This document shows, piece by piece, positions 1 to 43,250 of a stretch of 53,362 nucleotides of DNA. The stretch's first letter is position 1. Every line of letters begins with the position of its first letter. Made by a program: the position numbers and the translations under genes. Location: assembly GCA_032718475.1 (NCBI GenBank), contig JAUCBJ010002400.1, positions 1 through 53,362 of the forward strand, given 5' to 3'. The DNA is from Nemertoderma westbladi (lineage: Eukaryota; Animalia; Xenacoelomorpha). The notes beneath the pieces were generated by a model. The model made no database searches. It was not told the DNA's origin and worked only from the letters and a program-made list of their open reading frames with translations.

Positions 1-2
1 GA

Positions 3-1976
3 AGTAGTTAGAGTGAGGTCGCTGTCCGTATCTTTTTCATATATGAGTGCTCGATACACTGCGGTATTTATCATGTAACAGGATTCGTTTTCGTCGGAGA
101 ACTCGTCCGTATAGAATCCTTCCATCTCAGATTGATCAGTGTCGTTCACATCACTGAATTGGACATGTAGTTGTTCGGACTCACTTACCTGACTCGGGCT
201 GCTTCGTTCGAATTCAGTGTGCAACAAGATATGATGTTTCGCACCACACTTTGCACACCTTATGTCAGAGTAGCAGGTTCGCCGTTGGTGTCCTTGTCTG
301 AGGCAATTATAACATAACCGCTTATCCCACATGACTTCTCGTCTCTCCGTTAATGATTTCTTCAGGAATTCATCACACATATTCAAACGGTGGGTCCCGT
401 TACACAGCACACATTTCGGTTTGATGTTACTTACCTTATTTTGGGTAACATTGTGCACTCTCGTTCTTTCTTCGGGCTTTCTCACCTGAATTCTCTTGGG
501 AGACGTAAGAGGAGTTTTTCTTACCTGTTCTCTCTTGTCATTGGATCGAGACTTAAATTTACTTCCCTGTTCGTTAGGTGTTTTATGGCCATCATAAGAT
601 CTTTCAGTGTCTTTTCCGCTGTCCTCTCCTTGAGAAGTCTGGCTTTCGCCATCGTCGGTATAACACACTGGTGTTACCTTTCTCCTGGAGACGGGTTTCT
701 CACTTACCTTGTTTTCCGATGTCTTCTCTCTGGACTGCTTTATGAGCTGTAATTTCACTTCGCCATCCAAGAATGTCATGAGATCAGTCATGGTAGGGTC
801 TCGTTGTTGTTGTTCCATCATGTATAACACTTTCTTGTCCCAGCGTGTACCTACTCCACCCTTCGGTAAAGTAGAAGCCACTGCTCTAATAACCATAGCA
901 CTCTGATACTCATGAGACTTACCTAGCCAATCTAATTGTCTGCAGATCTCCTGAATTTCATCGGAAAACTCTATAATCCCGCTGCTAATAAACTTTCGGG
1001 GCGCTACCAACTTTGCATACAAATACCCAGCTATGTTATTCCTATTACCATACCTGATGTTTAGTGTGTCCCAAACTTGTCTTAATCCATCTGGATGTCC
1101 AATAAACTTTAACGCCATTGACTTGGGAGGTCCTTCCAAGCACTCGATGAGAAATCTAAGTTTCTCTCCATTGGATAGCACAGAGTCCTGTATGTTATCT
1201 TTATAATATTCATTAAAAGGTAACCATTTCATCTCATCTCCATTAAACTTGACGATCTCTCCAACCTTTACCGCTTGCCGGGCTTCGGTTCTAGCAATTT
1301 GTCGTGTAAAACTTTCTTGGGCCATCGTGTTATTTAATATCGAGTTATCGGTATATAAATTTCTCGGATTATGATCAGGTCTATAGGGAATGTCATTATC
1401 AACAGGTTTATAATTACCCTTAATAGGGTTTACTATAGGAGTTTCTACTTCGCTAGCAGTATAGATGCGTGTAGGCTCCACACCTTGCGCATGGGATACT
1501 TCAGACCTAACGGGTTGACACATTGTTACAGGGGGTGGTGGTATACCCTTTTGTGTGTTCACTAATTTATCGCGTTCTAACGCGATACTTTGCTGCACCT
1601 TTTGCAACTCTAACCTACTTTCCCTTACTGTGCCCTTGAATTGCTGAACGGTCTCCTGCATCTGCCCGAGCAGGAGATCCATCCCCCGCCGTCTCTCATC
1701 CACCCATTCGACCGCCGAAGCGGGAGTCGCCAACGTTGTAGCGGGCGGACGAGGGACAACGGGCGACAAATCAGGAATATTTCGCTCGGGGTCCAGGACC
1801 TGAACTGCCTCATGGGCTGTTCTACTGGGCACAGGTAGCTTAGTGCTGTGCAGAGGGAATTTAGAGGTAACTTCATGGAGCACAGGTGTGTCTATCACCG
1901 AAGGGGTGATTTCAAGAACAGGCCTAATTATTTCAGGCTCATCTACTATAGTAGGGAGTCCTTCTATTTTAATTAT
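3..1976 (-). pseudogene. Second copy of the gag core plus the C-terminal triple zinc knuckle; open reading frame runs off the window
   Basis: Manual translation of 1-520 on the minus strand gives CVLCNGTHRLNMC...CYNCLRQGHQRRTC...CAKCGAKHHILLH with no stop. This frame is shifted relative to the upstream ORF. Confidence 0.85.
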
Positions 1977-3433
1977 CTTACCTGTTCTCTCTTGTCATTG
2001 GATCGAGACTTAAATTTACTTCCCTGTTCGTTAGGTGTTTTATGGCCATCATAAGATCTTTCAGTGTCTTTTCCGCTGTCCTCTCCTTGAGAAGTCTGGC
2101 TTTCGCCATCGTCGGTATAACACACTGGTGTTACCTTTCTCATGGAGACGGGTTTCTCACTTACCTTGTTTTCCGATGTCTTCTCTCTGGACTGCTTTAT
2201 GAGCTGTAATTTCACTTCGCCATCCAAGAATGTCATGAGATCAGTCATGGTAGGGTCTCGTTGTTGTTGTTCCATCATGTATAACACTTTCTTGTCCCAG
2301 CGTGTACCTACTCCACCCTTCGGTAAAGTAGAAGCCACTGCTCTAATAACCATAGCACTCTGATACTCATGAGACTTACCTAGCCAATCTAATTGTCTGC
2401 AGATCTCCTGAATTTCATCGGAAAACTCTATAATCCCGCTGCTAATAAACTTTCGGGGCGCTACCAACTTTGCATACAAATACCCAGCTATGTTATTCCT
2501 ATTACCATACCTGATGTTTAGTGTGTCCCAAACTTGTCTTAATCCATCTGGATGTCCAATAAACTTTAACGCCATTGACTTGGGAGGTCCTTCCAAGCAC
2601 TCGATGAGAAATCTAAGTTTCTCTCCGTTGGATAGCACAGAGTCCTGTATGTTATCTTTATAATATTCATTAAAAGGTAACCATTTCATCTCATCTCCAT
2701 TAAACTTGACGATCTCTCCAACCTTTACCGCTTGCCGGGCTTCGGTTCTAGCCATTTGTCGTGTAAAACTTTCTTGGGCCATCGTGTTATTTAATATCGA
2801 GTTATCGGTATATAAATTTCTCGGATTATGATCAGGTCTATAGGGAATGTCATTATCAACAGGTTTATAATTACCCTTAATAGGGTTTACTATAGGAGTT
2901 TCTACTTCGCTAGCAGTATAGATGCGTGTAGGCTCCACACCTTGTGCATGGGATACTTCAGACCTAACGGGTTGACACATTGTTACAGGGGGTGGTGGTA
3001 TACCCTTTTGTGTGTTCACTAATTTATCGCGTTCTAACGCGATACTTTGCTGCACCTTTTGCAACTCTAACCTACTTTCCCTTACTGTGCCCTTGAATTG
3101 CTGAACGGTCTCCTGCATCTGCCCGAGCAGGAGATCCATCCCCCGCCGTCTCTCATCCACCCATTCGACCACCGAAGCGGGAGTCGCCAACGTTGTAGCG
3201 GGCGGACGAGGGACAACGGGCGACAAATCAGGAATATTTCGCTCGGGGTCCAGGACCTGAACTGCCTCATGGGCTGTTCTACTGGGCACAGGTAGCTTAG
3301 TGCTGTGCAGAGGGAATTTAGAGGTAACTTCAGGGAGCACAGGTGTGTCTATCACCGAAGGGGTGATTTCAAGAACAGGCCTAATTATTTCAGGCTCATC
3401 TACTATAGTAGGGAGTCCTTCTATTTTAATTAT
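519..3433. repeat. Direct tandem duplication, 2 x 1457 bp, nearly identical
   Basis: 519-1976 matches 1976-3433 at a constant offset of 1457 with only a few substitutions. Confidence 0.97.
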
Positions 3434-4600
3434 TAGGTCTGTGGGTTCTGTACTACCTAAGTTGGTGTTATTTAGTTGCCTTCTAACAGCTGGAGGCAAA
3501 TCAGGCAATTTCTGATGGTGGAATGTTCTTTTACGTCTGCTTAGGTGAGATCTATTTCCTTTGCCTTCAGTATCGGTGGTATCGCCTTCCTCAGATGATG
3601 TATATCCCTGTCTTTTGGGAGTAGATCGATTCATCATCTGCATATTACTAGCTGTTAACTGTTTATTTATGCAGTCTTGATTCTCCTGAATGTTTTCCAA
3701 TTCTAATTGGGTGGTTTCTTCAGTCGCTCTCCGTTCGGCTTCTGCCACTGCCTCTGCTGCCTTTCTTTCAGCCTCGGCCGCCTTTCTTTCAGCTTCGGCC
3801 GCTTTTGCTTCTGCCGCTGCCGCTGCCGCTTTTCTTTCAGCTTCGGCCGCTTTTGCCTCTGCCGCTGCCTCTGCCGCTGCCGCTTTTATTTCTGCTTCTG
3901 CAGCTACCACTGCTGCTTTCTTTCTGTCTTCTATACGTTTTTTCTTTACTTGTTCTTCTTGGTCTCTAGTGATGCGGAGGAGTTCATCAAATTTAGCTTG
4001 GTTCGCAGCTAACATTTCCGCATCGATTGCGTCCAGCACAAGCTTGGTTCCTTCACTATTAGGGCTAAGCCCCTCCAGCCTTCTCCTCAACTCTTCATCT
4101 CCTACAAAGCGTTGATAGTCTGACAGATAGATGTCAATAGCATCCCTCTTATGCGGTTTCTCTGCTGTCACTTCGCTTTCTTCTTGAGAAGAAGTGGCGT
4201 CGGTTGATTCTTCATAGGTTGGCCGCTCATCATAAACCTTATCCGCCATCTTCGCTCCGCGTTCGGGCGTCCGCTCAACAGTATCCGAACTACTGGAGCT
4301 ATCGGGCCGTTGAGAAATAAGTTCTTGGCTCGCGGGTTGTTGAGGTTCCGCTGCTTCTTGGTCCCGCTTGACCTGAGCTCGAGTGCCTATGATAGACCTA
4401 CGATGTTGGACTAGCCTAGGGTCTGATACTACTACTTGAGGGATGATCTTTCGCACAGTAGGAGGGGACTTAGACTTTGGTCTGGGATGTTCCATACTTT
4501 GATCTTGGTCACAGATCCTTTTAAGACGCTCTCTAAGTCTAATACTCATTCTAACACCCTCTAAAAGACTATCTGACAATGTTTGTTGTGAGTCAGACAT
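1973..4600 (-). CDS. BEL/Pao gag polyprotein N-terminal part (875 aa), prematurely stopped at the duplication junction
   Basis: KFNGDEMKWLPF...LSNGEKLRFLIECLEGPPK...VWDTLNIRYGN resembles the BEL gag core (DUF1759-like). An Ala/Glu/Lys coiled-coil repeat lies at ~3730-3920. The stop codon is created by the junction at ~1976. Confidence 0.85.
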   Translation of the reverse strand: MSDSQQTLSDSLLEGVRMSIRLRERLKRICDQDQSMEHPRPKSKSPPTVRKIIPQVVVSDPRLVQHRRSIIGTRAQVKRDQEAAEPQQPASQELISQRPDSSSSSDTVERTPERGAKMADKVYDERPTYEESTDATSSQEESEVTAEKPHKRDAIDIYLSDYQRFVGDEELRRRLEGLSPNSEGTKLVLDAIDAEMLAANQAKFDELLRITRDQEEQVKKKRIEDRKKAAVVAAEAEIKAAAAEAAAEAKAAEAERKAAAAAAEAKAAEAERKAAEAERKAAEAVAEAERRATEETTQLELENIQENQDCINKQLTASNMQMMNRSTPKRQGYTSSEEGDTTDTEGKGNRSHLSRRKRTFHHQKLPDLPPAVRRQLNNTNLGSTEPTDLIIKIEGLPTIVDEPEIIRPVLEITPSVIDTPVLPEVTSKFPLHSTKLPVPSRTAHEAVQVLDPERNIPDLSPVVPRPPATTLATPASVVEWVDERRRGMDLLLGQMQETVQQFKGTVRESRLELQKVQQSIALERDKLVNTQKGIPPPPVTMCQPVRSEVSHAQGVEPTRIYTASEVETPIVNPIKGNYKPVDNDIPYRPDHNPRNLYTDNSILNNTMAQESFTRQMARTEARQAVKVGEIVKFNGDEMKWLPFNEYYKDNIQDSVLSNGEKLRFLIECLEGPPKSMALKFIGHPDGLRQVWDTLNIRYGNRNNIAGYLYAKLVAPRKFISSGIIEFSDEIQEICRQLDWLGKSHEYQSAMVIRAVASTLPKGGVGTRWDKKVLYMMEQQQRDPTMTDLMTFLDGEVKLQLIKQSREKTSENKVSEKPVSMRKVTPVCYTDDGESQTSQGEDSGKDTERSYDGHKTPNEQGSKFKSRSNDKREQVR

Positions 4601-4719
4601 GTTTGATTGTACAGTTCAATGCCTACTGCTATATTACAGTCTAAGCAAGTCTAGTAATTCAGCATTAACGGCTAGCCTAGTAATTAATTACTGATACTGC
4701 TACTCAGTGTAGCGTGATA

Positions 4720-5100
4720 TATATATAATATTAGAATACCGGTATGCTTATAGTATATATAAGTATTATTACAGACTAGGTTTATCACAGAATACCGGTA
4801 TAATTTTAGCACAAATATATAAATATATAATAGGCCTATCGGGAATACCGGTATACAGCTTACACTTATAGTATAGTATATATAAGTATAATTCTGGACT
4901 AGAATTAATTACAGAGTACCGGTATAATTTCAGCCTAAATTTATATATATATAATAGGCCTATCGGGAATACCGGTATACAGCTTACAGTTTGTAGTATA
5001 TATAATTCTGGGCTAAAATTAATTACAAGTACTGGTATAATTTCAGCCGAAATTTATAGAAATAAAGATAATAGGCCTATCGTAAATACCGGTATATCAA
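4720..5100. repeat. Imperfect ~120-bp tandem repeats in the BEL leader
   Basis: aataggcctatcgggaataccggtatacagcttaca recurs near 4829 and 4953, with a degenerate copy near 5070. Confidence 0.7.
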
Positions 5101-7018
5101 TTATTTTAAATAATTGAATTTCTGAATTTTAGGGTTACTTGGTTACTTTACTTACTTTATTACCGCTATTTGAGCAGTAGTCCAACTGATATTGAGACCT
5201 AATGGTTGTATGGTAGGCCTACTATTTATAAATCGTTAGATTTGATTTATAATATATATATACCCGTTTTAATGGGTTTTGTCAATGTTTGAAATAAATG
5301 TTATTATTTCTGGGGAGTAATCACTACACAAAGCGGTGCGCTTTCAGTGAAGTGTTACTTATAGGACACTAAAACAAATAATTCTAATTTACCTAAGTTA
5401 CTTAATACTACAAATTACGTACGATTCGGGTTGAGATTACAATCTCTAAATAAACACAAAAATTTACAAAAAACACAAAATACGAAATTTTAGGGTAATT
5501 TTACAAGAAGTCTACAAACCAGCCTGACAAAGGGTTAGAATCTGGTTATTACAACGGACAGGGTACTACGGTATTTGAAAATAATAAGTAGTAGTAAATA
5601 CACTGCGTTGTCCAGATAGGAAAATACTACCGCCTGACGACCTATAGCCGTATCGCTATAGGTACTACGTTATGTATCACGGAGTGTTCCTACCTAGAAG
5701 TTAATAGAGCTAATCGAACGTGCCTATCAACCACTTTACAACACAAATATAATGCCCACACACTAATTACCTTCGGAAAGCACTGTACACTAAACCCTAA
5801 ATTAGGTACGAGCACTTATACAACAGATAATCAGTAGTTAAATATACTTGAACAGCTAAAAGAACCACGGCATCTGCTGGAGTGACCGGTGCACAAAATC
5901 ACCAGTCTTTACCTACGCCAAGCAGCCCGTGTAGTACCGGGGTTAGTTTAACTATAGCGGTATGTATAACAAACACAATTATTGTAGGAACAAACTTGGG
6001 GAATGAATGTTGCGAATAATCGCATAAACTCTGAATAATAAATATTACGCTACGCGTACAAACCACTCAAACAAAATGCAGACCAAATACTAACAGACTA
6101 CTATCAAGCCTAAATAAACTACAGGACATGCAGACTCCGAAATGGTTAGGTAGTATGCGTTCTAACCCAGTAGTACGACTTATTCTTTAGAAGGGGGTTT
6201 ACCTTACAGCTTTGGCTGCCCCTACTTCCTAACCGTTCTTTATCGGACAGATGATCTACACACACTGCAATCCGTTCAGACTTAACAACAATCAGACAAC
6301 AGCTCAGCCTACAAATTGTCTGTACAATCTGATCCCAGCAAAGTCACATCCTTCGAAATTGCTACTAATATGCTGCTAATTTGATCGAAATAAATTTTCT
6401 TCGAAATTATCAGCATTTTCGCCGTCTAAATTGTCTGATAATTCAGTCTACAATTCGTAGGATAAATTATCCTTCTAAACGAAGGATAAATGTGAAGACT
6501 ATTCGAAGAATCTGAAGATTTAGCTAGTTTTTAGCCGGCAAATAGAAGGATAAATTTGCCTACTATTCGCCGGATAAATTATCCTTCTAAACGAAGGATA
6601 AATTTGTAGACTTTTCGAAGGGTGGATGAATTGATAATTTTTACCCTTCGTTTAGAATGATAATTTATGCTGCTATTCGAAGGATAAATTATCCTTCTAA
6701 ACGAAGGATAAATTTGTAGACTATTCGAAGGTTGGATCATTACCTTGTTTAGTTATGCCTAGTTTAGTTACTGTATGTTATGTTTTATCCGGCAAATACT
6801 GCAGACTAAAATGATAATACATCCAGTATATTTTACTAGTATATTAGTATTACTGTAGTAATTTATTCCTACTAACTGACTAATAATTCGTATATTTTTA
6901 TCTGGACCATATTTAGCAGTAAATTAGTACAATGTTATCGCATTTCTTTAGAACTGTCGATTAAATAAAATATAAATATTCGATAAAATATATTCTATAT
7001 TGTATATTTCCATACTTA

Positions 7019-7436
7019 GGCCCCCCTCACACGGAGCAACTTGTTTCTGCAATTTGTTTCTGAAACTTGTTGATGGACCCCCTCACACACAGAAACTTGT
7101 TGCTGCAACTTGTTTCTGCGTGCGAGGAGTCCCGCACAACAAGTTGCTGCAACTTGTTTTTGAAACTTATTTCTGTGTGTAAGGGGTCCAGCAACAAGTT
7201 GCTGGAAGTTATATTCCCAGCAACTTTTTTAAAAACGTTTATTACATTACATTTTGATACTAGCTAATATCAGATAAATTGAGTGATGTGATATTATATA
7301 TAAATGACTGGACATGCTAGCTATTTATTTGAAATAATTGTTATTTTCTTCAGGGGGGGGGGGGGGGGGGGGGGGTGGCCAGCAACAAGTTGCTGAAACA
7401 AGTTGCAGAAACAAGTTGCTCCGTGTGAGGGGGGCC
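7019..7436. mobile_element. PIF/Harbinger-type MITE
   Basis: TIR GGCCCCCCTCACACGGAGCAACTTGTTTCTGCAA is mirrored at the right end, with a TTA TSD on both sides. Confidence 0.9.
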
Positions 7437-7838
7437 TTAGAGAAGCATAAGCATATTATTTATTTATTATTGAATACTTTTAAATTTCAAAAACATGACA
7501 CGACCCCCCCCCCCCCCCCAAACTTTTATACAAATTTTAATGAATAGAATGATATGAAGCAGAGTTACAGTAGTTTCACCGCCCTCATCCTTAGTGACTG
7601 AGCCAGAATTTGTATTTTTATATTTTATTCTTTAGCTAACAAGTGTTTGAATAAAGTGTCACCGCCGGCGATATTGCAGCACCAGTCCCATCTCAGTTCT
7701 TCAACCTTATATTGATTTGTTAGTTCTGATGGAAAGCTGACCATGCAAGGATTCCAAATAGGCCTATGTAAAAAAATTTAATCTAGGAAATAGCTGAGAT
7801 ATGGGCGTTTGGAAGTTTAATGTTTTTTCACGGCGTTA

Positions 7839-7936
7839 GGCCGCGTTCACACTACCTATATAATGTATACTTATTGATTATAGCTAGCTAGCTATATTTA
7901 TTTATTTTGATTTGACTCGGTAGTGTGAACGCGGCC
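7839..7936. mobile_element. 98-bp Harbinger-like mini-MITE
   Basis: Perfect TIR GGCCGCGTTCACACTACC / GGTAGTGTGAACGCGGCC, flanked by tta and tga. Confidence 0.75.
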
Positions 7937-8043
7937 TGAGGCTATTATTTTTCTATTTAATAAATAAACCATATTCTAGAACATGATGTAAGAACGTAAC
8001 TGAGGGTTCAGATTCATTTAGCAGAAACACTTTTACTGTGAAC

Positions 8044-9106
8044 AATGGGGTAGACGACTCGGAAATTTTTTTTCGAGTTTTCGTTGGTTTCATGTGAAAG
8101 AGCATGTGAAAAAACCCCAGAGAGCAATTTTACTTCAAAAAAATTAATATTTGCCGAGTTATAGCCATTTTAAAACGCAAAATTAGCAACATCGAAAAAT
8201 CAGGCCGTTTCAGAAAACTGCACGAGTGACGTCAGCCATAACACAGCAACAGTTGTCAAGCGCAGTTGATTGGCTAATATAAAGTATAATATTGCAGTAT
8301 CTAAATAGTTGAAGTATCATATGATTCCATATACATGCAAAGTTTACTGAAAAGTAGTAGTAGTTTCTGGAAGGAGTATATATTTCCCAAAATTGTGAAA
8401 AAGTAGATAATTAAAAAATGTAAATTATACAGTAGTTATAGTTCAACTAAATTCTGATTAATGCTGATTGTATTGAGATGACAGCTGAAGATACTACGTC
8501 ATCCATTACAGCTACATGGACTAACTATCAATGCTTTTTGGAATTCAATAATTTAACTTGTATAAAAATAATTACAATCGAAAAAGTGCGAATCCACAAT
8601 CCGTATCCGAATCCGTAATCTAAGTTTTGAAGCTCAATAAAACATCAATAAGCTACTGGATTTCTACCACCTGGCAGTTTTAGCTACAAAATATGTTTTA
8701 TTTTTATAGCTAACAACTATGTATAGTTTGGGAAAAATAATTATTATTCTGGAATAATTAACTTGTCATGAATCAATTTCCACATTAAGATATCAAATAA
8801 TGTATTCTTAACACAACACAAAAACACACTAAATAAATATTAGCTACACAATTTATTTTAGTTACTAAGAGATTTATATTGTATAGTAACCAATGAACAT
8901 TTACTGCTGCACTAGTGACGTCACTAGTGCAGTTTTCTGAAACGGCCTGATTTTTCGATGTTGCTAATTTTGCGTTTTAAAATCGCTATAACTCGGCCAA
9001 TATTAATTTTTTTTAAGTAAAATTGCTCTCTGGGGTTTTTTCACATGCTCTTTCACATGAAACCAACGAAAACTCGAAAAAAAATTTCCGAGTCGTCTAC
9101 CCCATT
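8044..9106. mobile_element. MITE with ~190-bp near-perfect TIRs
   Basis: aatggggtagacgactcggaaa...tgacgtca (8044-~8233) is mirrored at ~8916-9106. The TSD is ambiguous, possibly AT. Confidence 0.85.
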
Positions 9107-10360
9107 CGTATCTGGGAATTTAAATTCGTAACTGGGAACTGAAATTTGTAATCCAAATTTCAGATTTGTAAACCTGATGAGCATTCGCAGCGTATGGTAA
9201 TTTCTTTACCAGCATGCTGCTTGGTCCATTCCTATGTAAAATATTATCAATTCTTTATAATATAGCTGCTAATTGTCTTCGAAAACGAAGATAATTTATC
9301 AGGCAAATAATGCATATTTCCATAATCATAGAAGCATAATTATTAATTAAATGCATTTAAATTTACTTAATTTTACTCGATTCATCAACACGAATAATCT
9401 AATATGGCTGAAAATATGGGAAATTATTTAAATTTAAACTAACAAATTCGAATTTTTCGATTATCACCTAAAGTTTTCATAGATACCCTCAAATCTATAT
9501 TGATTATATATTTCTATATATACTCAGCCGCTTCCATTAATAAGTGTATAACGTATTGTAGGATAGGGAAGTAGGGTAGGATAAGGTAGGTATAGGCTAA
9601 TACCCCCCCCCCCCCCCCCCCTCCCTCTCCACCAAATCATCCACAGGCAGGTCCAGTGATTGGACTTGTTTCAGTTACTTTTTTTTCTTCGAAAAATAGT
9701 ATTTTTTATGCTTCGAAAATGCTTCTAATAATGTATGAAATTATCCTTCGAAAATGCTTCGTAAACTTCTAATTGAAGGCTAATAGTCTACTAAACGAAG
9801 TATTTTTGTCTTCGAAATCATCCTTCGAAAAATGCTAAATAAACTTCTAATCGCAGGCGAATAGTCTACTAAACGAAGCATTTTTGTCTTCGAATTATCC
9901 TTCGAATATGCTTCGTAAACTACTAATCGAAGGCTAATAGTCTACTAAACGACGGATATTTCTCTTCGAAATCCACCCTTCGAAACCTTTAAGAACATTG
10001 GAACCAAAAAGCCGGCTTTTATCCGGCGAAATTAGCAGGGTATTAGCCGGCGAAATTAGTAGCAATTTATCAGCGACTTATCATGCTATGACTTTGCTGG
10101 GATCAGGCTTACACGCCTTCTGTTCAATACTGGCCTACAAACAAATAAAACTTGACAGAAATAAGTAAAAATCTCAATAAAAAACCAGGGCTGCAGTCCC
10201 TGATTAATTATTAAGGCCTACCGGTATATAATTATCAAAATCGAATAATACTGCTGTACCTGTACTGCTGTATGTACTGGTCCGGGTGGTTAGGTAGTCA
10301 GGCCTACTGGGTACCGGTTGCCGGTACTTCAGCTTTATTGCCTACTGCAATACAGAAGCA

Positions 10361-10371
10361 ATATCCGTTAT
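10361..10371 (-). promoter_or_regulatory. Putative non-tRNA primer-binding site (ATAACGGATAT) directly after the 5' LTR
   Basis: It abuts the LTR-terminal ...GCGCGAACA, contains no TGG, and is the exact complement of the minus-strand 11-mer at 11134-11124. Confidence 0.6.
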
Positions 10372-11597
10372 TGTTCGCGCTTTCAGACCTTTGGCAGTTT
10401 AACCCGCCAAATTAGGATGTCTTCTAGATAATAAATCGCTTTTAGCCTCTGACAAGTATTTGATTCACTACACTAGTTGAAACCAATCTGTGCGCGATCA
10501 TTCACCCGTTGGATATACCCGGGAGATTGATTTCGACAGCTTAATTGTATTGCTATGTAAGCCTAATGTATTATTCGACTGACAGTATTATATAATCTCT
10601 GACAATATTATTCACCTTCGGGAAATATTAACAGTTCCTTTAGGACGTGGCGCTCTATCTATATAAACAGAGCTATGACTTAAACTACACGCAACGATAT
10701 GGCTTAGTTACAATTCACATATATGGCGCATTCTTTAGGAAATGCTTCGTTATCAGTCTCACTCATACACAATGCTGCACAATACTGCACACTGATCTGC
10801 CGATCTTCACTGATTTTAGTCACATATAAAAGGAACACGGACCGACTCATGTAGGGTCTATCAAATAACATTAGATTCACTTCAAACCACTTTAACATAA
10901 GTCACAATCGTTATATGTAACCTTTCTCTCTTACCTTCGGTATATCAAGAATATTGGGTTTTCGGGGTTATTTCTCGTTATTCCAATATAATATTTATCA
11001 CCATATAATGAATAATCGACAGTAAATAGCAGTATAACAATATAAAGGTATGTACAACAAGATATATGCATTGCCCAGTTGAGTTAGGTTAGTAGGTAAG
11101 TATTGAGTTGCACCGTGATTCAGATAACGGATATATGTCCTTATAATTAAGCCTACTAGTGTTAGGCTAAAAGCAGAACAGCACAAAATATTCCAAAGCC
11201 GTTCTTCCTGGCTCAGGACAGAATGATAACACTGCCCATAAAGCATTGCGTGATTTCTAGGAAATTTCTGTACAAGAACAGTAAAAACGCTCTGATTGGT
11301 TGACTGAACTGAGAGATGCCGTAGAACAAAGAAAATCGACACGTATGAATATCAGCTGTTAACCGTCGTCATAGTAACTACTGTTCAAGAGTATCTCGCC
11401 TCTTTTGCGTCACGGAATTGCCATAGAATCATCAACTATGCCTTCCACAGTACACATACGGAAGAAATAGCTCTTAGATCCTCTAAAAACACCGATACAG
11501 CAATAATACGGCCTCTTACGCCTATTAAACCAACTACAGAGTATTTTACGGGAAAAATAAGGTAAAATAACCGGGCAATTCAGCAAAAGCTTTTACA
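10372..11597 (-). repeat. LTR (1226 bp), interpreted as the 5' LTR of the BEL element
   Basis: The minus strand reads TGTAAAAGC...GCGCGAACA. It is colinear with a diverged homolog at 40759-42005, and similarity stops at these TG/CA ends. Confidence 0.8.
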
Positions 11598-11790
11598 CCC
11601 ATACTGTATTATTTGCTTTATATCCCATACTGTATTATTTGCTTTATATCCCATACTTTATTATTTGCTTTATATCCCATACCCTATTATTTGCTTTATA
11701 TCCCATACTGTATTATTTGCTTTATATCCCATACTGTATTATTTGCTTTATATCCCATACTGTATTATTTGCTTTATATCCCATACTGTA
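11598..11790. repeat. 26-bp minisatellite (cccatactgtattatttgctttatat) x ~7.4
   Basis: Directly visible tandem repeat. Confidence 0.95.
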
Positions 11791-11797
11791 TACTGTA

Positions 11798-12097
11798 TGT
11801 GGGGGAATCTACTCTCGGTCCCGCATACCAGTTATCGGGACGCCGTGCAGGCAATGTTGTAAAGTCGGAACATATGCCGGAGCAGATAAGTATAATAATA
11901 TATAATGTATATCTCGAATAAAGGTAGCCTACTGGGCTACACGGATCTAGGCCCAAACATAGTACCGGTAGACAGGACAGTCTGTACTGATAGCCTAAGT
12001 ATCTACAGATGATATGACAGACACAGACAGACTCTCGGTCGTCATCAAAGTGAAAGTATCTAGTGCCGGTACTGGTACCATAGTCGCTATTGCCACA
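11798..12097 (-). repeat. Gypsy 3' LTR (300 bp)
   Basis: Termini are TGTGG...CCACA. On the minus strand it is preceded by the PPT GAAAGGGGG and lies downstream of integrase. Confidence 0.75.
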
Positions 12098-12163
12098 CCC
12101 CCTTTCGAGCTTGGGTTAGCCGTCTGAGGCGGTGCCGAGCTAAAATTCGTTCTTACTCAGATG

Positions 12164-13081
12164 TCAGAGTCGGTCGGGTGGCTGATGTACCCGCCTCGGG
12201 TATTCGGAAACTGAAAGTTTCTCAAATTGTTGAGTTTCGATGAGGGGTTCACGCCAGCGTACGAGTTTGGGGGCTGTGGGTGTCGCGTCCGGGGTTGGTA
12301 GGCCCGTGGGTGTCTCCTGGAGGGCGGTGTCCGGAATAAGTAGGCGTCGGTTCCGGATGGGTGTGCATCCGGAAGGCATCCGGACAGTATACTTCCGGTG
12401 TTTACCGGACTCAACGATGGTGCCGGTGCGCTCCCACCGTTTATTGGTCAGGTGTTGAACCCGGACCCTGGCGCCCACCGCGAGTGGTTCCAGGGCCTTC
12501 GCTCCGCGGTTATATTGGGCGGTCCTGGTTGATTTTAATGCCGGCGCCACTCGGTCTAGCTTCGTCCGGGTCTCCTGGAGTGTCCGAGCGAAGGCGCTGT
12601 GGTGGGCCGGAACGCGCGACCTCATAGGATGGCCAAACACGATGTCCGCTGGGGAGAAGCCGCTCTCCCTGGGGCTGTTTCGGAGTTCCAGGAGCCCCTC
12701 CTGAAACGCGGCGGAGGTCGTTGACCCCCCAGTCTTCTCCAGTAGGCGCTTGAGAGCCTTCACTGCTGATTCAGCGTGCCCGTTACTCTGGGGGTATTCT
12801 GGCAACGATGTGACCGGTGTGACCCCCCAGTCTTTCAGGAAGCTGGTCAGCTCTGCTGATGTGAACTGGGTTCCGCCGTCCGACCGGAAGCGTGTTGGTA
12901 CCCCGTAGCGGACGAACCAGTCACGCAGGGCGGTGGTTGTCCGGGCAGCGGTGGGTGGGGCGGAGAAACTGTAGATTTCCGGCCATCCGGAATATCTGTC
13001 AGCGGTGGCGAGGAAATGTTTCCCGTCGAGTGAGAAGAAATCTCCCGAGATATCTTCAAACGGGCGAGTTGGTGGGGGCTC
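12164..13081 (-). pseudogene. Ty3/Gypsy integrase (DDE core plus C-terminus), 5'-truncated
   Basis: Uninterrupted frame PTRPFEDISGDFF...ADRYSGWPE...YGVPTRFRSDGGTQFTS...YPQSNGHAESAVK...LLELRNSP...IRNRRLL. Confidence 0.92.
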
Positions 13082-13084
13082 CGT

Positions 13085-13385
13085 ACAGCCTGACAGTACC
13101 GGTACACATGGTACATGCAGAATTGCAAAATTTGTCAGAAACCCAGCTGATATATCCTACAGTAATAATAATTTAACGCATTTTAAATTTGGATAAATAA
13201 ATTTATTATAACTGCAATAACAGTTACACTGATGCTGCACGAAGGCCCCACGCAAATTCTACTTGGAAAATTTTCAAACTTTTGCCAAACAACATGTGTA
13301 CCAAGTTTGGATAGATTTCATCAAGGATTGGCCGAGTTATTAACGTTTAAAATAAAATACTGAAAAAAAACGCGACAGAACGACA
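13085..13385 (+). repeat. Duplicate of 16387-16707 (3' part of a DINE/Helentron-like element)
   Basis: Near-identical to 16387-16707 apart from a ~20-bp indel. It truncates the Gypsy integrase. Confidence 0.85.
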
Positions 13386-17974: not shown

Positions 17975-18200
17975 TCATCTGACTAGATGAAATGCGATTG
18001 AATAGCTATCGAAAAAGAAATTTAAAAATCCAGAAATACAAAAAAAAAGAAAATTAATTATCGCTGAGAAGATGTGCCTTAAAGTTTTTGAAAAGGTCGA
18101 AAATTGTTGTGTGGACCGTATGATAATTGGTATCTCGTTCCAGATAATAGGGCCCTGATACTGTATGGACATCTGTCCCGGACAGTACGAATGCGAGATA
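17975..18200 (-). pseudogene. L2/Crack-like LINE 3' end fragment
   Basis: SIQYQGPIIWNEIPIIIRS...FSTFSKTLR resembles the typical CR1-group ORF2 C-terminus. Confidence 0.65.
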
Positions 18201-18263
18201 TTGTAGAATAGAAAACCAGTCAGCTATATATGGTGGCACTGAAGGGCCACTTAGGCAATATTT

Positions 18264-21200
18264 TTTTTATATTTTGCTTAAAACGAATATTAAGACCAAA
18301 AAAGGTCTTAAACTTCGTATTACGAAGTTTAAGACCTTTTATTTGGTCTTAAAGTTCGTAATACGAAGTTTAAGAACTTTTATTTGATCCTAAAGTTCGT
18401 AATACGAAGTTTAAGAACTTTTATTTGGTCCTAAAGTTCGTAATACGAAGTTTAAGAACTTTTATTTGGTCCTAAAGTTCGTAATACGAAGTTTAAGAAC
18501 TTTTATTTGGTCCTAAAGTTCGTAATACGAAGTTTAAGAACTTTTATTTGGTCCTAAAGTTCGTAATACGAAGTTTAAGAACTTTTATTTGGTCCTAAAG
18601 TTCGTAATACGAAGTTTAAGAACTTTTATTTGGTCCTAAAGTTCGTAATACGAAGTTTAAGAACTTTTATTTGGTCCTAAAGTTCGTAATACGAAGTTTA
18701 AGAACTTTTATTTGGTCCTAAAGTTCGTAATACGAAGTTTAAGAACTTTTATTTGGTCCTAAAGTTCGTAATACGAAGTTTAAGAACATTTACTTGGTCC
18801 TAAAGTTCGTAATACGAAGTTTATGAACTTTTATTTGGTCCTAAAGTTCGTAATACGAAGTTTAAGAACTTTTATTTGGTCCTAAAGTTCGTAATACGAA
18901 GTTTAAGAACTTTTATTTGGTCCTAAAGTTCGTAATACGAAGTTTAAGAACTTTTATTTGGTCCTAAAGTTCGTAATACGAAGTTTAAGAACTTTTATTT
19001 GGTCCTAAAGTTCGTAATACGAAGTTTAAGAACTTTTATTTGGTCCTAAAGTTCGTAATACGAAGTTTACGAACTTTTATTTGGTCCTAAAGTTCGTAAT
19101 ACGAAGTTTAAGAACATTTATTTGGTCCTAAAGTTCGTAATACGAAGTTTAAGAACTTTTATTTGGTCCTAAAGTTCGTAATACGAAGTTTAAGAACTTT
19201 TATTTGGTCCTAAAGTTCGTAATACGAAGTTTAAGAACTTTTATTTGGTCCTAAAGTTCATAATACGAAGTTTAAGAACTTTTATTTGGTCCTAAAGTTC
19301 GTAATACGAAGTTTAAGAACTTTTATTTGGTCCTAAAGTTCGTAATACGAAGTTTTAAGAACTTTTATTTGGTCCTAAAGTTCGTAATACGAAGTTTAAG
19401 AACATTTATTTGGTCCTAAAGTCGTAATACGAAGTTTTAAGAACTTTTATTTGGTCCTAAAGTTCGTAATACGAAGTTTAAGACCTTTTATTTGGTCCTA
19501 AAGTTCGTAATACGAAGTTTAATAACTTTTATTTGGTCCTAAAGTTCGTAATACGAAGTTTAAGAACTTTTATTTGGTCCTAAAGTTCGTAATACGAAGT
19601 TTTAAGAACTTTTATTTGGTCCTAAAGTTCGTAATACGAAGTTTAAGAACATTTATTTGGTCCTAAAGTTCGTAATACGAAGTTTTAAGAACTTTTATTT
19701 GGTCCTAAAGTTCGTAATACGAAGTTTAAGACCTTTCATTTGGTCTTAAAGTTCGTAATACGAAGTTTAAGAACTTTTATTCGGTCTTAAAGTTCGTAAT
19801 ACGAAGTTTAAGAACTTTTATTCGGTCTTAAAGTTCATAATACGAAGTTTTAAGAACTTTTATTTGGTCCTAATGTTCGTAATACGAAGTTTAAGAACAT
19901 TTATTTGGTCCTAAAGTTCGTAATACGAAGTTTTAAGAACTTTTATTTGGTCCTAAAGTTCGTAATACGAAGTTTAAGACCTTTCATTTGGTCCTAAAGT
20001 TCGTAATACGAAGTTTAAGACCATTTATTTGGTCCTAAAGTTCGTAATACGAAGTTTTAAGAACTTTTATTTGGTCCTAAAATTCGTAATACGAAGTTTA
20101 AGACCTTTCATTTGGTCTTAAAGTTCGTAATACGAAGTTTAAGAACTTTTATTCGGTCTTAAAGTTCGTAATACGAAGTTTTAAGAACTTTTATTTGGTC
20201 TTAAAGTTCGTAATACGAAGTTTAAGAACTTTTATTTGGTCCTAAAGTTCGTAATACGAAGTTTTAAGAACTTTTATTTGGTCCTAAAGTTCGTAATACG
20301 AAGTTTAAGAACATTTATTTGGTCCTAAAGTTCGTAAAACGAAGTTTTATGAACTTTTATTTGGTCCTAAAGTTCGTAATACGAAGTTTAAGAACTTTTA
20401 TTTGGTCCTAAAGTTCGTAATACGAAGTTTAAGAACTTTTATTTGGTCCTAAAGTTCGTAATACGAAGTTTTAAGAACTTTTATTTGGTCCTAAATTTCG
20501 TAATACGAAGTTTAAGAACTTTTATTTGGTCCTAAAGTTCGTAATACGAAGTTTAAGAACTTTTATTTGGTCCTAAAGTTCGTAATACGAAGTTTAAGAA
20601 CTTTTATTTGGTCCTAAAGTTCGTAATACGAAGTTTAAGAACATTTATTTGGTCCTAAAGTTCGTAATACGAAGTTTTAAGAACTTTTATTTGGTCCTAA
20701 AGTTCGTAATACGAAGTTTAAGAACTTTGATTTGGTCCTAAAGTTCGTAATACGAAGTTTAAGAACTTTTATTTGGTCCTAAAGTTCGTAATACGAAGTT
20801 TTAAGAACTTTGATTTGGTCCTAAAGTTCGTAATACGAAGTTTAAGAACTTTTATTTGGTCCTAAAGTTCGTAATACGAAGTTTTAAGAACTTTTATTTG
20901 GTCCTAAAGTTCGTAATACGAAGTTTAAGAACATTTATTTGGTCCTAAAGTCGTAATACGAAGTTTTAAGAACTTTTATTTGGTCCTAAAGTTCGTAATA
21001 CGAAGTTTAAGACCTTTTATTTGGTCCTAAAGTTCGTAATACGAAGTTTAAGAACTTATATTTGGTCCTAAAGTTCGTAATACGAAGTTTAAGAACTTTT
21101 ATTTGGTCCTAAAGTTCGTAATACGAAGTTTAAGAACTTTTATTTGGTCCTAAAGTTCGTAATACGAAGTTTAAGAACTTTTATTTGGTCCTAAAGTTCG

Positions 21201-22455
21201 TAATACGAAGTTTTAAGAACTTTTATTTGGTCCTAAAGTTCGTAATACGAAGTTTAAGAACATTTATTTGGTCCTAAAGTTCGTAAAACGAAGTTTTATG
21301 AACTTTTATTTGGTCCTAAAGTTCGTAATACGAAGTTTAAGAACTTTTATTTGGTCCTAAAGTTCGTAATACGAAGTTTAAGAACTTTTATTTGGTCCTA
21401 AAGTTCGTAATACGAAGTTTTAAGAACTTTTATTTGGTCCTAAATTTCGTAATACGAAGTTTAAGAACTTTTATTTGGTCCTAAAGTTCGTAATACGAAG
21501 TTTAAGAACTTTTATTTGGTCCTAAAGTTCGTAATACGAAGTTTAAGAACTTTTATTTGGTCCTAAAGTTCGTAATACGAAGTTTAAGAACATTTATTTG
21601 GTCCTAAAGTTCGTAATACGAAGTTTTAAGAACTTTTATTTGGTCCTAAAGTTCGTAATACGAAGTTTAAGAACTTTGATTTGGTCCTAAAGTTCGTAAT
21701 ACGAAGTTTAAGAACTTTTATTTGGTCCTAAAGTTCGTAATACGAAGTTTTAAGAACTTTTATTTGGTCCTAAAGTTCGTAATACGAAGTTTAAGAACAT
21801 TTATTTGGTCCTAAAGTCGTAATACGAAGTTTTAAGAACTTTTATTTGGTCCTAAAGTTCGTAATACGAAGTTTAAGACCTTTTATTTGGTCCTAAAGTT
21901 CGTAATACGAAGTTTAAGAACTTATATTTGGTCCTAAAGTTCGTAATACGAAGTTTAAGAACTTTTATTTGGTCCTAAAGTTCGTAATACGAAGTTTAAG
22001 AACTTTTATTTGGTCCTAAAGTTCGTAATACGAAGTTTAAGAACTTTTATTTGGTCCTAAAGTAGTTCGTAATACGAAGTTTAAGAAATTTTATTTGGTC
22101 CTAAAGTTCGTAATACGAAGTTAAGAACTTTTATTTGGTCCTAAAGTTCGTAATACGAATTTTAAGAACTTTTATTTGGTCCTAAAGTTCGTAATACGAA
22201 GTTTAAGAACTTTTATTTGGTCCTAAAGTTCGTAATACGAAGTTTAAGAACTTTTATTTGGTCCTAAAGTTCGTAATACGAAGTTTAAGAACTTTTATTT
22301 GGTCCTAAAGTTCGTAATACGAAGTTTAAGAAGTTTTATTTGGTCTTAAAGGTCATAATACGAAGTTTAAGAACTTTTATTTGGTCTTAATGTTAATAAT
22401 ACGAATATTAAGATCTTTTTTGGTCTTAGTATCCGTTTTAAGCAAAATATAAAAA
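18264..22455. repeat. 41-bp satellite (~100 copies) enclosed by terminal inverted repeats (foldback/MITE-like)
   Basis: The unit is ttttatttggtcctaaagttcgtaatacgaagtttaagaac. Flanks tttttatattttgcttaaaacgaatattaagaccaaaaaa and ttttttggtcttagtatccgttttaagcaaaatataaaaa are inverted repeats. Confidence 0.95.
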
Positions 22456-26849: not shown

Positions 26850-28400
26850 GGTCAACAGACAAACTATTTAAATATTTTTAAAGTCTTCGTCGAACAAATC
26901 CAATTCCACCGATGGTAGAACACAATGGGAAAACAGCATGTTTACCAGTTGATAAAGCAATTCTATTTAATGAATTCTTTCATTCAGTATTCGTTACACC
27001 CGAGTTGAAAACAATTGAAATATTACCACCGACTGATCCAAAATACAACCCACCATTATCGATGGTGACTGATGATTACGATGTTAGTGTACCAACAGTA
27101 AAGGTGATTCTAATGAAATTAGATACTTCAAAAGCGAGAGGACCCGATAAATTGCCACCTTCATTCTTAAAAGCTTCCGCTGACCATATAGCATCATCAT
27201 TATCAATCTTATTTACTTTAATAAAACAGTACAGTTATTATCCAATCAAATGGAAATGTGAGTGTGAATCCTCCGTACAAGAAGGGAAATAGGATACAAG
27301 TCCCAATGTACAGACCAGTATCCCTACTGCCAATACCTTTGAAGGTATAGGAGAGTTGCCTCTTTTGTCCATTATACAAACAAGTACGTGATCAACTACA
27401 CAATGCCCAACATGGTTTCCGTAAAAACCGATCAACAATCACACAGATGCTTTTATTTATGGACAAGGTATACAATGCATACGATAATGGTCAAAGTATT
27501 GAGATTTTTTATCTGGACTTCCAAAAGGCGTTCCACCCATTGAGTCATAAATCAGTATTGAATAAACTGTGGCGTCTTGGAGTCAGAGGATCGTTATGGT
27601 TCACAATTCGCAGTTATTTATCAGACAGGAGTCAGTTTGTCCGAATTGACGAAGCTCAATCACCGGTAGTTGATGCCGAAAGTGGTGCACCACAAGGATC
27701 AATCTTAGCTTCCCTTTTGTATGTAGTCGACGCCAACGATCTCCCAGATATATGTGTTGAGAGTGATCCTAATCAGTTTGCTGACGATACGAAATTATTA
27801 GCTATCAGTAACCATGGTGAAAATCGCAACTTACAAATACATATTGACAATCTTGTAGAATGGGCAGTTAATAGTGGACTTCGATTCACTGCTGACAAAT
27901 GCAAACAAATGGTAATAAATAATGATAACAGTGAATCACGATTTCTATAAGGTAACATAATGGAACGCACAAACAGTGAACGAGATCTAGGTATGACAAT
28001 TTCAGAGAAACTAACATGGGGTGAACATATAGATGATCGATGTAAGAAGGCAAATAATGTCTTCTTTTGATAAAGAAGAACTGTTCACGCCGCATAAAAT
28101 CAGATAACAGATTGAACTTATATAAGTCCATGGTATTACCAGTAATAATGTACGGATCACAATGTTGGTATGCTAGTAAGAGTGATCTCAAATCAGTCGA
28201 GTCAGTTCAGCGTCGTATATCGGATTGGATATTGGCATATCCAAACATGATCTTATATAGATAGATTGATTGATCCGACTAAACGTTTTACCAATATCTC
28301 GATACATTCAGCTTAATGATCTTATTTCACTTTCAAAAATTATTTATGATCATTATGATTTCTCTTGGCGCGACCATAATACCATTGAACCTAGATATCA
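26850..28400 (+). pseudogene. CR1/L2-group LINE reverse transcriptase, frameshifted and truncated
   Basis: KAILFNEFFHSVF, KARGPDKLP, YLDFQKAF, SGAPQGSILASLL, FADDTKL and LNLYKSMVLPVIMYGSQCW are spread over several frames. Confidence 0.93.
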
Positions 28401-31013: not shown

Positions 31014-31209
31014 ATGTCTCAAATTTGCTTTGCTTACATTAGATAGAACTGGTACACTAATGGTATTAGAGTGAGTACAGTGCAGTAAAGCGTTAATGCG
31101 CTTTTACTATACTGTATATTTACAAGTGTACTTATCTTATCTATAACTTATTTATATGTGTTAAATGTTCCTTCATAATAAACCGTGATGAGTGTGCCAA
31201 GCTGATCTT

Positions 31210-34205: not shown

Positions 34206-34874
34206 TCAGTTGAAAGGGATTGTTACTGCCAACAGAATAGATACAAGAACTCCATTGAGATGATTTGCCAAACCAGATGATGTTACCAATGTTTCAGCCG
34301 TTGTTGTTGGAGGCTCTGTCTCTGTTGTAGTCGGTTCTGTTGTAACTGGATCAAACATGGGATCATTCCAATCAATCTCTCCGTTGGCATCCAGATAGTC
34401 GTGTTCCCACACCCTGTCCCCTACGTTGTTGCAGGCTTCTGTTCCATTACAACATATCAACTGGCAACTTCCACGTGTCAGTTCGGCGTTGTAAAACGTG
34501 CTATCTCTATGGAAGACATCGTTGAACTCCTGAGATTTACTGCATTCATCTTCATTGACGTAATTCTTGCAATATATGTTTTCACTCAAGCATAACAAGT
34601 GCCTGTTGTACATCAAACCTTTGATAACATCGTTGTTTATAGAGAGAATTCCCGCCGCTTGTGTGAAAAACAGACCGCACGAGGAACAATCAGTTGAATT
34701 GTTACCTGGGTTTTCCAAAAGCCAACCGGTGGTATCTGGGTACAGGTCGGGACGGGATGTCTTATAAGCGACCATGCTATGTCTCTCCAAACATGTAATA
34801 GCTGACACATACATAACTTTCTGTGTAACTATAAAAGCGGCAACTAATAGCATTTTCATAAAGTCAATATCCAT
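34206..34874 (-). CDS. Secreted/GPI-anchored Ly6/uPAR (three-finger)-like protein, intronless
   Basis: Hydrophobic signal peptide, a Cys-rich domain from AITCLE to CQLICCNGTEACN (CCx4-5CN motif), a Thr/Pro/Glu stalk, then SSG and a hydrophobic C-terminal tail. Confidence 0.85.
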   Translation of the reverse strand: MDIDFMKMLLVAAFIVTQKVMYVSAITCLERHSMVAYKTSRPDLYPDTTGWLLENPGNNSTDCSSCGLFFTQAAGILSINNDVIKGLMYNRHLLCLSENIYCKNYVNEDECSKSQEFNDVFHRDSTFYNAELTRGSCQLICCNGTEACNNVGDRVWEHDYLDANGEIDWNDPMFDPVTTEPTTTETEPPTTTAETLVTSSGLANHLNGVLVSILLAVTIPFN

Positions 34875-40758: not shown

Positions 40759-42005
40759 TGTACGCGCTTTTGAAGACCTTTAGCAGTTTAACCTGCCAAA
40801 ATTTATATGTCTTTTGGTTTATAAATAGACTTTAGAAGTTGACAAATATTTAATACCAATAAACACAACATTAGCAGAAGCCAGCCTAGTGCGCGTCCAT
40901 TCACCCGCTGGATATACCCGGGAGACTGGATTCTGAGGGCTTAGATTATTATTGCAGTGTAAGCTTACTGTATTATTCGATTGATCGTTAATAAATAATT
41001 TCTGACTAATATTATTCACTTTCGGGAAATATTAACAGTTCCTTTAGGACGTGGCGCTCTATCTAGGTAAACAGAGATATGACTTATACTAATCACAACG
41101 GCAAGTCGGTAAGGCTAATGATTCACGTATGAGGCGCATTCTTTAGGAAATGCTTAGTTATCAGCCACAATCATGCACACTACCGGTAACACACAATACT
41201 GCTCACTAATTTGCCGACCGTCAATGAATTTTATCATATATAAAGAGAACAGCAACCAATCATGTAGTGCTTATCAAATAGCATTAAATTCACTACAAAC
41301 CACAACAATATAAGTCGCAATCGCTATATATAACCCGTCTCTCTAACCTGTAGTGTATCAAGAAAATTGGGAAATTTGGGTTCTTTATAAATGTTCTCCA
41401 AATAATAATATTCAACCAAAACACAACAGTAAATAGCATTAAGACGGTAGGTTAAGATGGTAACACTGTTTGACTGGACCGATATGTGATATGATATGTT
41501 AAGATAACAGTTATACGCTCTATAATCTTAAGCCTACTAATGTTTCTTCTAAAGTATGAAAACGAATTAACTCTAGAGCCGGTGTTCCTGGCCTAGATAG
41601 CAACAACACAACAGTATCACAAAAAACAGTAAGACTGAACACTCCTAGTATGATCGGCCGAATATCTCCACATCGACAGAAAAAATCGCTCTGATTGGCT
41701 TAAGCTAAACAAAGAACTACGTGTCCAATGGCTGTTCCCATGTCAGCAACCAGCTGTTAGATGTCGTAATCTGAATCATCAAGGATAAGCTGTGTAAAGG
41801 TATTTGGTGCATTGCGGGTTTTTTGCCTTACCATGTCCGCCAAAACACGTATATAGAAGAATGACTTTTATGTCCGTTAAAACACCTATAACGGTACCTT
41901 GCGGGCGAGGGGAATATATATATAGTTAGAGAGCCTTTTAGAGTATTCCAGCGCCTGGGGGGAAACTGGCAAAAGGGCCAGTTATATCCCACAGAAGCTT
42001 TTACA
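40759..42005 (-). repeat. LTR (1247 bp), 3' LTR of a related element
   Basis: The minus strand reads TGTAAAAGC...GCGCGTACA. It is homologous to 10372-11597 and is preceded by a purine-rich GGGAGCGG (PPT) and a same-strand ORF. Confidence 0.8.
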
Positions 42006-42083: not shown

Positions 42084-43250
42084 TTAGTCTTTCTTGCGCG
42101 GACGGCGTTTACGCAGTTTTTTAAAGCTAGCCAGAGTCCTTTTCTCTTTGGGGCGAGCCACTTTACAAGGAGGGCTATAACTCCTGGGTGAAGGGTGCAA
42201 TATGATTGCATCAGAGGGTGTAGGATTATGGTCGGTGTATCCGCCAGTCGAAGTACCGGGTTGATTGACATCAACGTCAGGGGAGAGGGGTCTAACGGCT
42301 TTGAGAGCTCGTTTCAAGACAGCCGCTCTTACGGGTCCTTTACGAGTGGTCTGAACGAGGGCCGTGGGTGGACCATAGGCAGTTAGAAACCTCCGGGGTT
42401 TAATGGTCCTTTCCAACTCGCGTTCGCGGGCTCGGTATTCGTAAGGCCGTCGATATACTTCCTGTAACTCGGGGTGTGAGTTAACAAACAAGTCTCCATA
42501 GTCCGGATCCTGACGGATATAATTGATTAAGTTATAGGAATGAAGGTCGCTAGGATTAACACTCCTGAGAAATTTGCGTACGAATTTGGTTGAAATACAT
42601 TCTCCGACGCGCTTCAGTAGCTCGTAACTTGATATGCGTGATTTCTGTTCAACCGAAGCGAATAGATAAGGATGGAACGCATAAACTCCTTCGTAAGCGC
42701 GCCCGGGATAATAGCGATGGCGCGAATCACAATGTAAATCAGCGTTCGCTTCCCAAGCTCGGATGTAACGTAGTGTGATCATTTCATCTACGCTTTCCAA
42801 ATCGTGATTAAAAGGGCAATCGAAACTGGCATGTCCCTTTAGTTGACAATGGTGACATTGAGTCATAAATTGAGGGCAAACCGCAAAGATATGCAAGTTA
42901 TTGAGTCTGCAATATGCGCAATAAATTTCCATAGTCGGTTGTTCTTGGAAATAGGAACAGCGGACGTTGGTGTCCATGGGCGTATCGTGGTCTCTCGATG
43001 CGCATAACCGACAACGTTGCCTAGAAACATAGTTGGCATGTCGATAATCGTACGCAGTGAGACACTGTGGACCTTGATACCATTCTATGATGTAATCGTT
43101 GTCGCTGTTCCGGGGCGCGATAGGCTGAATCTCTTCAGATTCTAGACATATTGGTTCGTCTTCCAAGTACATAGCTGAAGTGGGCGCGTCTGTCTCTTCA
43201 GGTGGACCTCTTGGTGTTCCCTGGCGGTCTCCCATCCAAGTACTAACCAA
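42084..43250 (-). CDS. Triple zinc-knuckle protein with basic C-terminus; retroelement 3' ORF whose 5' end is fused to 5S rDNA
   Basis: CRLCASRDH..C, CAYCRLNNLHIFAVC and CHHCQLKGHASFDC, with C-terminal KKLRKRRPRKKD. The first ~14 codons are 5S sequence. Confidence 0.75.
   Translation of the reverse strand: MVSTWMGDRQGTPRGPPEETDAPTSAMYLEDEPICLESEEIQPIAPRNSDNDYIIEWYQGPQCLTAYDYRHANYVSRQRCRLCASRDHDTPMDTNVRCSYFQEQPTMEIYCAYCRLNNLHIFAVCPQFMTQCHHCQLKGHASFDCPFNHDLESVDEMITLRYIRAWEANADLHCDSRHRYYPGRAYEGVYAFHPYLFASVEQKSRISSYELLKRVGECISTKFVRKFLRSVNPSDLHSYNLINYIRQDPDYGDLFVNSHPELQEVYRRPYEYRARERELERTIKPRRFLTAYGPPTALVQTTRKGPVRAAVLKRALKAVRPLSPDVDVNQPGTSTGGYTDHNPTPSDAIILHPSPRSYSPPCKVARPKEKRTLASFKKLRKRRPRKKD

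Follow-up and report, generated by a model that had tools for sequence, protein, structure and literature searches.

Organisation of the locus

The window, by which we mean the whole 53,362-nt stretch of DNA analysed, contains a BEL/Pao-type gag, a leader and a long terminal repeat (LTR A) on one strand, together with a second, related LTR (LTR B) and several other repeats (Table 1). As the preliminary description had it, the gag is of the BEL/Pao type: in addition to its domain content, its homologues are Pao polyproteins with 25–45% identity. The reading frame is broken by a 1457-nt tandem duplication (window 516–3433, 99.5% identical), which represents either a recent event or an assembly artefact. 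The TG..CA ends of the LTRs agree with the hallmarks of BEL/Pao elements, as does the purine tract, seen at LTR B only, and the element is filed as BEL/Pao-type by its gag alone, pol lying beyond the window.

Table 1 Coordinates of the features of the retrotransposon locus and its surroundings, in window positions
Feature	Position	Strand	Remarks
BEL/Pao-type gag, DUF1759 and three Cys/His knuckles	1..4600	-	two frames; leaves the window before pol
Leader from the primer site to gag, with about 2 kb of own sequence	4601..10359	-	split by insertion
Insertion, 3768 bp, 13-bp terminal inverted repeats, AT on both flanks	6334..10101		nested inverted-repeat elements inside
Candidate primer-binding position, 11-mer after the terminal CA plus position 12 (10360)	10360..10371	-	without TGG; four variable places
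LTR A, 5′ LTR, 1226 nt, TG..CA	10372..11597	-	boundaries from alignment with LTR B
Hairpin predicted close to the 3′ end of both LTRs	10390..10411	-	z -1.25 in A, -2.16 in B
Predicted RNA hairpin with a like fold at 40932-40885 in LTR B	10490..10535	-	z -2.17 in A, -0.76 in B
Candidate self-primer, complement of the 11-mer	11124..11135	-	11135 pairs with the family's commonest 10360 letter; putative RNA 5′ end
CCAAT box shared by LTR A (11299) and LTR B (41698)	11290..11302	-	putative promoter function
LTR B, related 3′ LTR, 1247 nt	40759..42005	-	purine tract and repeat-level depth upstream
Cys/His-rich ORF, about 370 aa, basic tail, just upstream of LTR B	42084..43202, or to 43262	-	cut off by 5S rRNA array

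The insertion in the leader, whose terminal inverted repeats begin CCC, is one that we take to be EnSpm/CMC-like by its hallmarks; the inverted-repeat elements nested in it lie at 8044–9106 (with 191-bp arms) and 7015–7440. The two leader parts share short motifs, which weakly support continuity of the leader across the insertion. LTR A and gag lie on the same strand, the leader between them being split by this one insertion with matching 2-bp flanks, and they probably belong to one element.

LTR A is inserted in the 23-nt tandem repeat of a Gypsy-type LTR, the 3′ LTR that accompanies a Gypsy-type integrase fragment at window 11598–13156. No target-site duplication was found around LTR A alone and no purine tract precedes it, while contigs from public sequencing runs extend over its 3′ end into the leader with a depth of hundreds of thousands, compared with 16–57 in single-copy flanks (all depths being summed contig depth, not copy number). 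Because this repeat-level depth continues into the leader, we take LTR A to be a 5′ LTR and the 11-mer that follows it to be family sequence; on these three grounds, its interpretation as a solo LTR or a 3′ LTR was rejected.

LTR B is 76% identical to LTR A over the last ~650 nt, with a first half that is poorly similar. Its purine tract and the repeated internal sequence upstream mark it as a 3′ LTR, which is therefore unable to show a primer site of its own. In runs X1, X2 and X3, contigs of its flank (40469–40758) stop aligning at 40758 with 57–75 letters left over, and LTR B may be absent at its window site in these samples. AATAAA occurs in neither LTR. An exact LTR-end pattern search of metagenome contigs gave 0 matches, and a promoter-block pattern found 34 viral stretches, none of them related beyond the 20-nt match.

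The Cys/His-rich ORF before LTR B, for which no homologue was found, runs up to a truncated 5S rRNA gene near 43203, where a 5S rRNA array of 10 copies with a period of about 1103 bp begins (window 43205–53362). Elsewhere the window holds a 41/42-nt satellite array with internal palindromic symmetry (18180–22450), a LINE-type reverse transcriptase fragment (27351–27950) that is unrelated to the BEL element, and two ORFs without a Pfam family, at 31192–32823 (543 aa) and 34206–34877 (223 aa). By eye, the product of the 223-aa ORF has the look of a Cys-rich protein that is secreted and perhaps anchored in the membrane.

Complementarity between the post-LTR sequence and the LTR

On the minus strand LTR A ends in ...GCGCGAACA, with its last nucleotide at 10372, and is directly followed by ATAACGGATAT (10371–10361). 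Inside the same LTR, ATATCCGTTAT at 11134–11124 (minus strand) is the exact 11-nt complement of this post-LTR sequence. Both 11-mers occur only once within the window, their pairing ends at 11 nt in the window copy, and the internal site lies 763 nt from the LTR end. TGG is absent from the 30 nt after LTR A in the window copy, and no TGG after the LTR was found among the family variants listed at a frequency of at least 1%. The preliminary description, which had given an exact 11-nt complement extending no further, a stretch of ~760 nt from it to the LTR end and no tRNA-type TGG primer-binding site, is borne out on all of these points. Its estimate that such a match would arise by chance about once in 1000 holds as well, with a match of at least 11 nt at offset 0 in 15 of 20,000 dinucleotide shuffles of LTR A; at any offset from 0 to 5, 40 of the 20,000 gave one. 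As further measures of chance, 51 of 74,772 other window 11-mers were found in LTR A, and 11 nt was reached in 2 of 40 shuffles of LTR A when the LTR end was left free. LTR A shows the combination expected for Tf1-type self-priming, at least 10 nt complementary to the LTR and no tRNA-type TGG at that place.

LTR B carries ATAACTGTTAT at 41514–41504 (minus strand), the variant site reported earlier at the position aligned with the LTR A site. This sequence is a near-palindrome that matches with two mismatches on both strands. Contig depth in LTR B drops ~8-fold just 3′ of the site, with joints at 41503, and we read this fall as subfamilies sharing a block up to the end of the site; none of the 40 variant rows listed, from a total of 173, lies within it.

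Variation at the candidate primer position within the family

Contigs from four public runs (X1, X3, X5 and X6, representing at most four studies) were aligned on 10315–10425 with a threshold of 1%; X6 is labelled as another organism, X5 barely covers the site, and divergent subfamilies fall outside the aligned contig set. Only four places in the 111 nt are variable and all lie within positions 1–12 after the LTR. The variants account for 50% (X1) and 35% (X3) of depth at 10371, 45% in both runs at 10367, 17% (X1) and 12% (X3) at 10366, and 74% (X1) and 68% (X3) at 10360, where the variant is the commonest letter; X6 has the same four variable places. The probability of all four falling in a given 12 of 111 positions is ~8e-5 if detection is even, which it is not fully. 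Where a tRNA templates the primer site, each cycle restores the site from the tRNA, so that it should vary less than any other part of the element. The variable post-LTR site therefore argues against a tRNA primer.

The commonest letter at 10360 pairs with 11135, extending the pairing to 12 of 12, and LTR B shares this letter. At 10366, the variant pairs with the letter of LTR B and leaves the LTR B site with one mismatch in 12. Both the twelfth pair and the 10366 variant are compatible with self-pairing. The preliminary description had predicted from LTR B how the post-LTR site should covary with the internal one, and this succeeded in part: the 10366 change is present at the frequencies given above and the 10364 change is not listed. 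One match of two predicted changes is reached in ~18% of cases by chance alone. The differences of LTR B's own LTR end are not listed among the aligned contigs either, and the 10364 miss is not a fair test because B-type LTR ends are apparently missing from them. The major 10367 variant (45% of depth, and combined with the 10371 variant in apparently one X6 contig) has two mismatches to the LTR A site and four to anything in LTR B. The 11–12 nt after the LTR are complementary to an LTR-internal site and vary among the copies of the family; these contigs, which give the post-LTR side of the variant copies, do not show covariation of primer and site inside the window family.

Promoter signals and predicted RNA folds

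The TATA-like motif, earlier placed ~10 nt upstream of the site, does begin 11 nt upstream of it, at 11145. If used, a motif at -11 would place the start of transcription downstream of the site, which counts against a start at 11134. The CCAAT box lies 165 nt (A) and 184 nt (B) upstream of the site. Some 600 nt downstream of the site, the hairpin at 10490..10535 has two pairs changed on both sides between A and B, in a comparison of two sequences only. The CCAAT box and the compensated hairpin would fit a long transcribed R-U5.

The primer helix forms in a predicted 805-nt fold, with pair probabilities of 0.73–0.97 at 9 of the 11 pairs. It is lost in the 935- and 1033-nt folds, with a penalty of 14 and 23 kcal/mol when it is imposed, and the predicted folds include a local hairpin that can mask the post-LTR site. 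The most conserved LTR block (10670–10600) has no stable local fold, and a search for the three-helix pretzel of Tf1 gave only candidate helices of 7–8 bp, none of them common to LTR A and LTR B.

Self-complementarity in distant BEL/Pao relatives

To find relatives, 78 loci were fetched from metagenome contigs with an alignment of nine BEL proteins, the group of P0072, which is among the better matches to the capsid region of the window gag; 29 of the loci have a repeat on both sides of the ORF and 49 lack a flank or LTR repeat. The same search of viral contigs gave no related stretch (0 of 112). Eight loci with contig-end overlaps only were left out, and 12 were examined for a defined LTR end, three of which had no clean CA end and were set aside (L040, L046 and L105). 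The remaining nine represent eight distinct families, L095 and L096 being 99.7% identical. One of the three set aside, L040, has its gag three times over as identical tandem copies, apparently a single BEL element repeated head to tail.

At the nine loci with a defined end, TGG is absent from the 8 nt that follow the LTR, and all nine (eight of eight distinct families) have a match to their own LTR. In eight of the nine (seven of eight families: L072, L085, L086, L089, L090, L094 and L095/L096) this match is split and forms across a splice junction, with 11–15 nt of pairing (0–2 of 300 shuffles) that begins 2–3 nt after the CA and an intron of 76–164 nt with a GTAAG donor and an AG acceptor. 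The one contiguous relative, L044, has a 10-nt match (3 of 300 shuffles). When nine further loci were scanned blind, without a fixed LTR end, the junction pattern appeared in five (L035, L039, L041, L079 and L081; 0–1 of 40 shuffles), which add four new families as L079 belongs to the family of L072, and nothing above chance appeared in the other four (L043, L048, L075 and L088). Over all spliced relatives the introns inside the LTR are 75–168 nt long and bounded by GTAAG..AG. Of 11 relatives, only L085 has a TATA box 31 nt upstream of its predicted primer.

As the post-LTR sequences of these relatives differ and each matches its own LTR, the set amounts to covariation across families. In a quick gag tree, in which 85 of 202 cut sequences were kept, the window element sits on a long branch (27% best identity) outside any self-priming cluster, and the relatives therefore raise the prior for self-priming rather than providing evidence from kin. 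They suggest that a self-priming design is common in BEL/Pao, which does not imply that the window family inherited it from them.

Proposed mechanism and alternatives

We consider it quite probable that this repeated BEL/Pao-type retrotransposon primes reverse transcription with its own RNA in the manner of Tf1. By analogy with Tf1, transcription would start at or near 11134/11135, and the first 11–12 nt of the RNA would fold back over a structured loop of ~760 nt onto the post-LTR site. Cleavage by RT/RNase H behind the paired nucleotides would then release a 3′ end from which minus-strand DNA would be primed into the LTR end. A post-LTR site copied from the element's own RNA would be free to drift together with the primer. 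In the window family the self-primer would be present ready-made and unspliced, while most of the tested relatives appear to splice theirs together. With somewhat less assurance, we favour a broader reading in which a large part of BEL/Pao has abandoned tRNA priming, most tested members splice an 11–15-nt self-primer from the LTR-derived 5′ end of their RNA, and the window family is a divergent intron-free form with a ~760-nt fold-back.

The element could also be self-primed by an RNA that is spliced or cut from inside the transcript, the contiguous site being a by-product or the mark of an intron-less derivative. This would agree with the split primer of seven of the eight distinct relatives with a defined end, with donor-like sites at 10934 and 10505 in LTR A that are kept in LTR B, and with the 45% variant that has no contiguous partner in either LTR. 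The pairing offset after the CA, 0 in the window element and 2–3 nt in the eight spliced loci, counts against the main reading. However, a splice-junction primer found no support in the window element when its post-LTR site and three variant forms were compared with LTR A and LTR B: no junction match rose above chance (best 7–9 nt, in 21–287 of 300 shuffles), whereas the contiguous match was stronger in the same test, at 11–12 nt in 0–2 of 300 shuffles. The post-LTR site also lacks an AG acceptor, and we regard a spliced or internal primer as unlikely here.

Equally unlikely is that the pairing between LTR and leader acts as a structural switch (in packaging, dimerisation or translation control) and that the primer is a host RNA not ending in CCA, such as a tRNA half or a small RNA. 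Half-tRNA primers do exist in Ty1/copia lineages (PMC6317226), and the post-LTR site falls in a competing local hairpin in the predicted folds; no tRNA gene was found in the window. A host primer would nevertheless fix the site, yet no other part of the 111 nt varies, and the many unrelated post-LTR sequences of the relatives each match their own LTR. The least probable alternative, that the match arose by chance in an AT-rich, near-palindromic motif or that the post-LTR stretch is not the element's primer site, draws on the 1-in-1000 events that will turn up when many windows are scanned, on the two-strand matching of the LTR B site and on an LTR-to-gag link that spans a 3.8-kb insertion, but is opposed by the twelfth pair and the 10366 variant, which come from contig data that were not part of the original observation, by family-level depth across the LTR end and by the self-match in eight of eight distinct relatives with a defined end.

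Comparison with known systems

If the element is self-primed, the mechanism of Tf1 would reach a third LTR superfamily, and BEL elements in which no primer site can be detected would have an explanation. On the broader reading, all three LTR superfamilies would have self-priming members, and what textbooks say of Belpaoviridae would apply to some members only. We infer that self-priming would also make BEL elements independent of the tRNA supply and insensitive to control exerted by tRNA fragments. Judging from the relatives, many families may have their primer made by host splicing, which would be stranger than the window copy itself. A C. elegans BEL element has reportedly been proposed to encode its own tRNA-like primer, and no paper on it was found. 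In titles and the opening lines of abstracts, a coverage that excludes most subscription papers and Repbase entries, we found no published report of self-priming in BEL/Pao and, at the same depth of source, no published description of a splice-split self-primer in this group. The accessible parts of PMC3286476, PMC13524379 and PMC8220671 do not address BEL priming, and those of PMC554778 and PMC3118150 make no mention of primer, PBS or tRNA.

The ICTV profile of Belpaoviridae describes LTRs of at most 1.2 kb with TG..CA ends, a purine tract upstream of the 3′ LTR, a gag with capsid and nucleocapsid domains, and priming by a host tRNA at an 18-nt site for tRNA-Arg or tRNA-Gly, and calls replication in the family poorly understood (PMC8742986). 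The LTR ends, purine tract and gag domains are common to the window element, whereas the tRNA site and host-tRNA priming do not fit it: in place of the 18-nt site there is a variable sequence without TGG. The splice-split BEL/Pao relatives resemble the window element in lacking TGG and in having a self-complementary site, and differ in a primer split by an intron and an offset of mostly 2–3 nt, compared with a contiguous primer at offset 0.

Outside BEL/Pao, self-priming has been described for Tf1/sushi elements and predicted for Tcn1 and TAR (PMC6317226, bioRxiv 2022.12.06.519325 and PMC3601003), the prediction for TAR and Tcn1 requiring at least 10 nt complementary to the LTR and starting 0–5 nt after it (PMC6317226). 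The window element shows the same sequence pattern as the TAR lineage of Ty1/copia (Houba, Osr-1) and the Tcn1 clade, which, unlike it, are plant or fungal elements of other superfamilies. In Tf1, the 5′ end of the RNA anneals after the LTR, is cleaved and primes minus-strand DNA (PMC7175516 and PMC5341516). Tf1, Tf2 and Tj1 of the Tf1/sushi group (Ty3/gypsy chromoviruses) share with the window element the length and position of the complementarity. The latter differs in belonging to another superfamily, its gag being of BEL type where a Tf1/sushi member would carry Ty3/gypsy chromovirus proteins, and in the ~760-nt loop within a 1.2-kb LTR; the flanking pretzel helices of Tf1 are not evident in the window element. 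The likely case is therefore one of Tf1-like self-priming in a superfamily described as tRNA-primed, in an element that works like Tf1 rather than being a member of Tf1/sushi.
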